Below are positions 46,996-48,579 of a stretch of DNA of 64,000 nt, in pieces. This DNA is from Syntrophales bacterium (GTDB taxonomy: Bacteria; Desulfobacterota; Syntrophia; Syntrophales; UBA2210). The notes beneath the pieces are model-generated. The model did no database searches. It saw nothing but the letters and a program-made list of their open reading frames with translations, and had not been told where the DNA came from. Location: contig JALNXD010000005.1 in NCBI GenBank assembly GCA_023230565.1, positions 1,169-65,168 on the forward strand. The letters run 5' to 3'. Made by a program: the position numbers and the translations under genes. Numbering within the stretch: the first letter of the stretch is position 1; every line of letters starts with the position of its first letter.

Positions 46996-48579
46996 ATGAC
47001 CGCAACAAAAACGAATGCCCTCTCACGTGCACTTAGTGCTGCCTACAAGAGAGGAGTGGATGACGAGATGCTGGAGCCGCTGGTGCTTTTAGATGAAAAA
47101 GGAAATCCTGAAGGACGCCTGCAAAGAGGTGATTCGGTAATTTTCTATAATATAAGGGGAGAGCGGGAAATTGAACTTACCAGAAGTCTCACGGAAAGGA
47201 ATTTTGGAGAATTTCCCGTTGAGCGGGATCTGGACCTGAATTTTGCCACGATGATAGAATATAAAAAGGGGCTACCGGTCGCTGTGGCATTCCCCCCCGA
47301 AGAATGCATTACCGATACACTGAGCTCAGTGATCGCAAGGGCGGGAAAGCTCCAGACGAAGATTACAGAAGCTGAAAAAGCCATTCATCTGGGATACTTT
47401 TTGAACGGTAAGCGTTCAGCTGCAGAGGCAGGAGAGGAACGGATTATCATTGCTACAAGAAAAGACGTTGTTCTTTTTGATGAAGCGCCGCGAATGTCGA
47501 TCGATGAAATCACGGAAAATGTGATTACCAAAATGCGGGATAAATCAAGGGACATACTTATTGTCAATTATCCTAACGTTGATGTAGTAGGGCATATAGA
47601 AAACAGAAACGCGGTTATTGATGCAGTAGAAGCAGTAGACGAAGCCCTTGGAATCGTTCTGGAGGAGGCGGAGAAGAACAATGTTATCTCTATAGTAACG
47701 GCAGATCATGGAACTGTCGAAAAATGGTATTATCCCGATGGAAAAATAGATACCGGACATACCGATTCGCCGGTTCCGTTCATTATCGTCTCAAAAGACG
47801 ATAATTTACGGCTTAGACGCAATGGAGAACTTTCTGACGTGGCTCCGTCGATACTGCATTTAATGGGGATTGACATACCGCCGGCTATGGCAGGTCATTC
47901 TCTCATTTGCGGCGATATCGAAGTAAAAAAAAGGGTGCTGCTTTTGATTTTGGATGGGTGGGGACTTGGAGAAAAGGGACGGAATAATTTAATCTACGAG
48001 GCAAAAACCCCTGTTATGGACCGTTTGATGAGCGTGTACCCGCATTCCATCCTGAAAGCCTCGGGCGAAGCCGTGGGGCTGCCTGAAAAAACCGTGGGAA
48101 ATTCGGAGGTTGGCCATCTTCATATAGGCGCGGGAAGAAGGATATATTCGGATCGGGTGAGGATAAACAGGGCAATCGCCGAAGGGTCGTTCATGAAAAT
48201 CGAGGCCTTGAACAAAGTCATGGACTCATCCATTCTAGAAGGCAGTGCACTGCACTTGATGGGAATTGTATCTTTTTTCAGTTCCCACGGGTCAGTCGAT
48301 CATTTGTGCGCACTTATGGAGATGGCAAAGAAGAAGGGGGTAAAAGAGCTCTATGTGCACGCAATGCTTGGAAGGCGCGGCGAAAGGCCTGAAAGCGGCG
48401 CACTTTATATAGAAAAAATCGAACAGCAGTGTCAGAAATTGGATCTTGGTTCCGTTGTTTCGGTAATAGGCAGATATTGGTCCATGGACAGAGAGGAAAA
48501 TTGGAACAGAATAGAAAAAACATACAGAATGCTCGTATATGGTGAGGGAACGGGTATTCCGGAAAGGGGCAGCCTGTGA
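46996..48579 (+). CDS. gpmI: 2,3-bisphosphoglycerate-independent phosphoglycerate mutase, circularly permuted domain order
   Basis: ATG 46996 follows AAGAGGA. Residues encoded by 46996-47907 align with the C-terminal ~290 aa of canonical iPGM ([30 protein letters not shown]). Residues encoded from ~47926 align with the N-terminal ~225 aa ([24 protein letters not shown]). Confidence 0.8.
   Translation: [527 protein letters not shown]

Follow-up and report, generated by a model that had tools for sequence, protein, structure and literature searches.

Cofactor-independent phosphoglycerate mutase (iPGM; GpmI/GpmM) is a two-domain enzyme, and its canonical form carries the transferase domain as an insert in the phosphatase domain. 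The canonical family is represented by the structures 1EJJ and 1O98, the TIGR01307 profile, and the Pfam pair PF06415 (iPGM_N) and PF01676 (Metalloenzyme). The present analysis concerns a 64,000-nucleotide stretch of DNA from a Syntrophales bacterium (assembly GCA_023230565.1, contig JALNXD010000005.1, positions 1,169 to 65,168 of the forward strand), hereafter the window, which contains an iPGM gene whose two sequence blocks are in swapped order. The window protein and the canonical enzymes have both domains in common, together with the Ser nucleophile in GNSEVGH, all seven metal ligands, and the Arg/Lys/His residues that bind the substrate, at 36-41% identity per block. The differences are as follows: the chain is permuted at canonical positions 211/220; DGRD is changed to GRRGE, with the loss of Asp154; and GGVHSH is changed to SSHG.

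Two other mutase families of the alkaline phosphatase superfamily, each with an inserted cap domain, resemble the window protein in their metalloenzyme core and in chemistry based on a Ser/Thr nucleophile: the archaeal-type ApgM (TIGR00306) and the phosphopentomutase DeoB (NF003766). Neither cap domain is related to iPGM_N. The ApgM and DeoB profiles matched only the core, weakly (residues ~130-300, E 1e-8 to 1e-11), with scores far below the cut-offs (41.6 vs 320; 34-39 vs 254-256), and membership of these families was rejected.

Natural circular permutation is described elsewhere, for example between the eukaryotic and bacterial glutathione synthetases (cited in PMC2876114). The type of event is the same: the fold and active site are kept, the start of the chain is moved, and homology or annotation is obscured. 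The glutathione synthetases belong to another protein family, and the iPGM permutation also inverts which domain is inserted. A permuted iPGM appears to be undescribed. The full-text literature search returned no description of one, and the PDB holds no entry that aligns over the full length and no solved structure with the permuted order. This agrees with an earlier note on the same DNA, made from the sequence alone, whose author knew of no such enzyme.

Block order and domain layout

The window protein aligned with canonical iPGMs as two off-diagonal blocks, each with an E value of about 1e-55. In a search of PDB sequences, residues 311-519 matched residues 3-211 of the G. stearothermophilus enzyme without a gap (E 1.3e-55), and residues 13-304 matched its residues 220-509 (E 8.2e-54). 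BLASTP against E. coli GpmM (b3612; L001:5261-6802) paired residues 13-304 with 223-511 (37% identity, 6e-60) and residues 311-518 with 5-212 (41% identity, 1e-56). The profile matches showed the same swapped domain order. TIGR01307 positions 209-504 were found at residues 5-304; Metalloenzyme positions 64-251 at residues 101-293 (195.7 bits, cut-off 24.3); and iPGM_N positions 1-129 at residues 390-518 (185.1 bits, cut-off 27).

The canonical chain, in the order phosphatase-N, transferase, phosphatase-C, is opened within a transferase-domain loop (211/220), and its old termini have been joined by a linker of six residues, C305-G-D-I-E-V310. The new C-terminus (canonical 211) and the new N-terminus (canonical 220) are only ~8 residues apart in the canonical chain, and both lie inside the transferase domain, ~90 residues before the transferase/phosphatase boundary. 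The features of a natural circular permutant were all found: swapped blocks that are each collinear with the parent, a single open reading frame (ORF), a linker that fuses the former termini, and a new start and end that are neighbours in the parent chain. The earlier note had proposed this arrangement, including the swapped block order, the linker CGDIEV, the catalytic Ser within GNSEVGH (S370), and the contiguity and location of the new termini; each of these points was borne out. No collinear alignment with a canonical iPGM was obtained.

The domain boundaries were mapped via the 1EJJ alignment, using the canonical hinges 76/77 and 310/311 (Table 1). In the permuted protein the pieces follow one another as transferase-C, phosphatase-C, linker, phosphatase-N, transferase-N. 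This makes the phosphatase domain a contiguous insert within a split transferase domain, which is the reverse of the canonical arrangement, and both inter-domain hinge crossings are retained. In relatives the linker is variable in sequence, usually 6-11 residues long and up to 46, with the window protein at the minimum of six; this variability is as expected of an unconstrained connector. An AlphaFold2 model built from 117 family members was confident (mean pLDDT 85.9, pTM 0.84). In a Foldseek search of the PDB, the 22 top-scoring matches to the model were all iPGMs (E 1e-17 to 7e-12). These matches aligned only ~300 columns, with TM scores of 0.35-0.5, because the aligner depends on sequence order and was facing a permutation.

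The ORF is uninterrupted on the + strand, spanning 46930..48579 and opening at TTG 46930 in the ORF list of the window. The likely start is ATG 46996, which gives a product of 527 aa. This start was preferred because a Shine-Dalgarno-like GAGGA lies 8 nt upstream, and because the homologues are 515-530 aa long with equivalent N-termini. The earlier note had raised two independent partial genes, parted by a stop or frameshift, and a misassembly at the 47.9-kb junction as possible flaws. Neither was found: the frame is continuous, and the junction was reproduced in independent assemblies. The 1584-nt gene was base-for-base identical in three other assemblies, namely ENA ERZ27247376 (100% DNA identity with the window across 21.6 kb), JGI 3300044603 (a single mismatch in 11 kb), and Logan SRR25572339 (100% across 7.7 kb).

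Distribution and origin of the permuted form

Homologues were searched among 5.8 billion proteins, with each listed match representing a 90%-identity cluster. The best 120 matches to the window query were all collinear with it over 94-100% of its length, at 59-72% identity; the best 120 matches to an Anaerolineae member were all permuted. All 240 matches listed across the two queries have the permuted order. The same order and the same breakpoint were found in hundreds of homologues at 49-72% identity, and the breakpoint is common to all 296 permuted proteins that were fetched. The earlier note had considered that the order might be missing from relatives, which is not the case. One locus from the species-genome scan described next, in a Marinimicrobia single amplified genome (L053) and listed as covering residues 9-519, turned out to encode a canonical iPGM aligned as two out-of-order segments, and was excluded.

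A scan of one genome per species yielded 48 loci, with the junction inside a single ORF in 47. The 47 genomes were labelled as Deltaproteobacteria, Smithella, and Thermodesulfobacteriota; as Anaerolineae, Thermoflexia, and Chloroflexota; as Planctomycetota (Phycisphaerae, Planctomycetales); and as Armatimonadota, Zixibacteria, Aminicenantia, and Neomarinimicrobiota. All 47 species genomes with a permuted iPGM are metagenome-assembled genomes (MAGs). Among the matches listed in the Anaerolineae-seeded search, only MAG or metagenome proteins occurred, with no cultured host. In a comparison aimed at a second phosphoglycerate mutase in the same genomes, the contigs of canonical matches and those bearing the permuted gene had no lengths in common. 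Nearly identical permuted iPGMs were observed in two MAGs labelled Anaerolineales and Planctomycetota (L040 and L041). At least one of these two bin labels is therefore probably wrong, and the count of phyla needs caution. Judged from the sequences at hand, the permuted iPGM is a large, old, multi-phylum family that has gone unremarked in the public sequence databases.

A main permuted clade was monophyletic in 200/200 neighbour-joining (NJ) bootstraps when P0260 (see below) was left out, which points to a single old origin of this clade. Read in this way, the permuted form is no recent accident; it makes up an old family of housekeeping genes maintained by vertical descent. No duplication-fusion intermediate with an N-C-N-C arrangement was seen among the iPGM matches longer than 600 aa.

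A few sequences have the same breakpoint and block order and keep the canonical motifs (GVHS, DGRD): P0126, which is open-ended, P0131, P0134, and a domain of P0260. These rare forms are 47-57% identical to canonical iPGMs and equally close to one another. Their NJ placement was weak (bootstrap 2-33%), and all permuted sequences grouped together in only 4/200 bootstraps. The gene for P0134 is complete (514 aa) and was recovered from two ENA assemblies that are independent of each other (L054:4041-5585 and L055:2341-3885); its nearest database relatives among the matches listed were all canonical iPGMs (49-57% identity). P0134 may represent an independent permutation at the same loop. Since the rare forms do not group reliably with the main clade, and the nearest relatives of P0134 are canonical, recurrent permutation at this loop is possible.

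Two further observations concern the rare forms. Upstream of the P0134 gene are a metallo-beta-lactamase-fold protein, with a Pfam match to Anti-Pycsar_Apyc1, and a 325-aa protein without a Pfam match. P0260 is a giant Ala/Leu-rich protein of 5027 aa, with its permuted iPGM-like domain at residues ~3856-4368 and the breakpoint at the same position; the motifs of this domain are partly altered (ETTKGKKHLTFF, NLCAPDMVGH), with DGRD among those kept. Either a genuine insertion of the domain or an error of gene calling could account for it.

Active site, family signature, and probable function

For analysis of the active site, 28 diverse permuted sequences, 25 of them from the main permuted clade, were de-permuted and aligned with 125 canonical sequences. 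The nucleophile S62 and the equivalents of D12, D403, H407, D444, H445, and H462 were conserved in 25/25 main-clade sequences and invariant in 117 close homologues. The same was found for H123, R185, R191, R261, R264, and K336. Together with R153, which corresponds to R460/R461 of the window protein, these last residues are reported to be the substrate-binding set in the 1EJJ/1EQJ structures; all of their window counterparts are invariant (Table 1).

Two loops are different. The loop at H123 reads S-F-[FY]-S-S-H-G-S in the main permuted clade vs S-D-G-G-V-H-S-H in canonical enzymes, and canonical L-D-G-R-D is replaced by L-G-R-R-G-E. This signature is almost unchanged from Syntrophales to Chloroflexota and Planctomycetota at ~50% overall identity, and is therefore under constraint.

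The window protein is most probably a functional permuted iPGM, that is, an ordinary Mn-dependent 3-phosphoglycerate/2-phosphoglycerate mutase. This reading is favoured because the phosphoserine and two-metal machinery is complete, because the transferase-domain arginines that hold the phospho-carboxylic acid are all invariant, because the distribution is housekeeping-like, and because the TIGR01307 equivalog profile scored 483.5 against a cut-off of 330.65, a score that sums two out-of-order stretches. The reaction would proceed via a phosphoserine intermediate on S370. The two domains would still close over the substrate, with H431, R460/R461, R493, R499, R54, and R57 of the transferase domain keeping it in place. 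At the two-metal site S370 would take up the phosphate, after which the glycerate would reorient and be re-phosphorylated.

Several findings weigh against an ordinary mutase. D154 is present in 124/125 canonical sequences and is mostly replaced in the main permuted clade, where the position is Gly in 18 sequences, Ser in 4, Asp in 2, and Ala in 1. Asp154 is probably a substrate-site residue, as reported for the 1EJJ/1EQJ structures and in line with its conservation; the full-text literature search returned nothing on its role. The SSHG motif occurs in 287/290 full-length permuted sequences and GRRGE in 278/290, vs 0/245 canonical sequences in both cases. Conversely, DGRD occurs in 240/245 canonical sequences and in only 3/290 permuted ones; the window protein has GRRGE in its place. 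Given the replacement of DGRD and GGVHSH, the pocket for glycerate differs from that of the canonical enzymes. The NF003897 equivalog profile scored 420.9, also summed over two out-of-order stretches, which is below its cut-off of 862. Many members are named "alkaline phosphatase family protein" at NCBI, where canonical relatives receive the full enzyme name; JGI labels the permuted proteins iPGM. In a clustering of gene neighbourhoods over 49 loci, cleaned of shadow ORFs, no glycolytic gene was consistently adjacent to the permuted iPGM.

The strongest rival explanation is that the protein is an iPGM-derived enzyme with altered chemistry or substrate, such as a mutase or phosphatase whose substrate is another phospho-acid or one of higher charge, and that another enzyme performs the glycolytic mutase step. 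This seems unlikely, though it draws on several of the findings above. The signature changes sit in those transferase-domain loops that line the substrate pocket, and they combine the loss of Asp154 with an extra invariant Arg (R460-R461), an invariant Glu (E463), and SSHG around H431, all in motifs that none of the 245 canonical sequences carries; the low NF003897 score and the generic name given by the NCBI annotation pipeline point the same way. However, the remaining residues that bind phosphate and carboxylate are invariant, as is the whole metal site, and an enzyme that was only a phosphatase could do without them. The context of the gene across phyla is single-copy and housekeeping-like, and TIGR01307 is above its cut-off. 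The rare permuted forms keep DGRD, which indicates that a chain can be permuted without the change of motif.

A related and similarly doubtful proposal is that the SSHG/GRRGE family has been neofunctionalised, with a more basic pocket suited to another substrate or regulation, and that the 211/220 loop has been permuted several times (in the main clade, P0134, P0131, and P0260). Three trivial origins, namely an artefact of assembly, a chimera made from two partial genes, and a duplicate in decay, are practically excluded, since the ORF is uninterrupted, the same DNA was recovered in three other assemblies of different sources, and hundreds of homologues share the order, the breakpoint, and invariant catalytic residues; no support for any of the three was found.

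Genomic neighbourhood and significance

Table 1. Positions of the permuted iPGM gene, its domain pieces, and neighbouring genes in the window; canonical equivalents are in parentheses.
Feature	Coordinates	Strand	Remarks
M23 peptidase gene, one side of iPGM	44218-45210	-	
147-aa ORF	46404-46847	-	no Pfam match; overlaps the start of the PCMT gene
Shine-Dalgarno-like GAGGA	46983..46987	+	read from the sequence; 8 nt 5' of ATG 46996
Complete permuted iPGM ORF	46996..48579	+	527 aa + stop
New N-terminus and C-terminal transferase piece, residues 1-101 (220-310)	46996..47298	+	1EJJ alignment; R54 (R261), R57 (R264)
C-terminal phosphatase (alkaline-phosphatase-like) piece, residues 102-304 (311-509)	47299..47907	+	K128 (K336), D196/H200 (D403/H407), D237/H238 (D444/H445), H255 (H462)
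Linker CGDIEV, residues 305-310	47908..47925	+	joins old C-terminus to old N-terminus
N-terminal phosphatase piece, residues 311-384 (3-76)	47926..48147	+	D320 (D12), nucleophile S370 (S62), codon 48103-48105
N-terminal transferase piece, residues 385-519 (77-211)	48148..48552	+	H431 (H123) in SFFSSHGS; MLGRRGE (457-463, for LDGRD); R493 (R185), R499 (R191)
New C-terminal tail GIPERGSL, residues 520-527	48553..48579	+	includes stop codon
Macro-domain gene	48576..49106	+	176 aa; GTG start; 4-nt overlap with iPGM stop
Two-subunit pyruvate carboxylase	52425-55861	+	biotin carboxylase, 484 aa; PYC_OADA + biotinyl-domain subunit, 647 aa
M23 peptidase gene, other side of iPGM	56124-57065	+	

The iPGM gene is divergent from four genes on the opposite strand, which encode the 147-aa protein, protein-L-isoaspartate methyltransferase (PCMT), a DedA/VTT protein, and a LysM-M23 peptidase. 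The 147-aa ORF adjoins PCMT in five delta-proteobacterial relatives as well. On the other side, the macro-domain gene is apparently translationally coupled to the iPGM gene. The macro domain is of the ADP-ribose-binding or deacetylase type, and a functional link to iPGM is not obvious. It is followed by genes for a YhdP/AsmA-like protein, the two-subunit pyruvate carboxylase, another M23 peptidase, and SecA. With 3.8 kb between them and a shared strand, the iPGM gene and the downstream pyruvate carboxylase fit a gluconeogenic or anaplerotic setting. Scans for Rfam families, tRNAs, promoters, and terminators around the iPGM gene returned nothing relevant.

The synteny is lineage-specific only. 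The LysM-M23/PCMT/small-protein group on one side and the iPGM-Macro pair on the other are kept in delta-proteobacterial relatives at 60-65% identity, the pair being present in L005, L007, L008, and L034. The neighbours in Anaerolineales differ and comprise other housekeeping genes, holB-like and thrS. In E. coli, gpmM is directly followed by envC, which encodes an M23-family murein hydrolase activator (L001:6839-8098). The M23 genes near the window iPGM and near E. coli gpmM could reflect an old gpmI-M23 neighbourhood or a coincidence.

The family shows that an enzyme of central glycolysis has undergone natural circular permutation in a clean form that is both ancient and widespread. The permuted proteins often carry generic names in Syntrophales/Smithella, Anaerolineae, Phycisphaerae, and other uncultured anaerobes, and metabolic reconstructions of these organisms may therefore report a false phosphoglycerate mutase gap or overlook a changed enzyme. 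Because the two domains have exchanged the roles of insert and host while both hinges are kept, nature has here provided an experiment on how iPGM closes at its hinges. The enzyme is a drug target in nematodes and trypanosomatids. For engineering and drug-target work, the permuted form indicates that the 211-220 loop tolerates chain termini and that six residues suffice to fuse the old ones. The coupling of the permutation with the loss of DGRD also raises a testable question about the role of Asp154.

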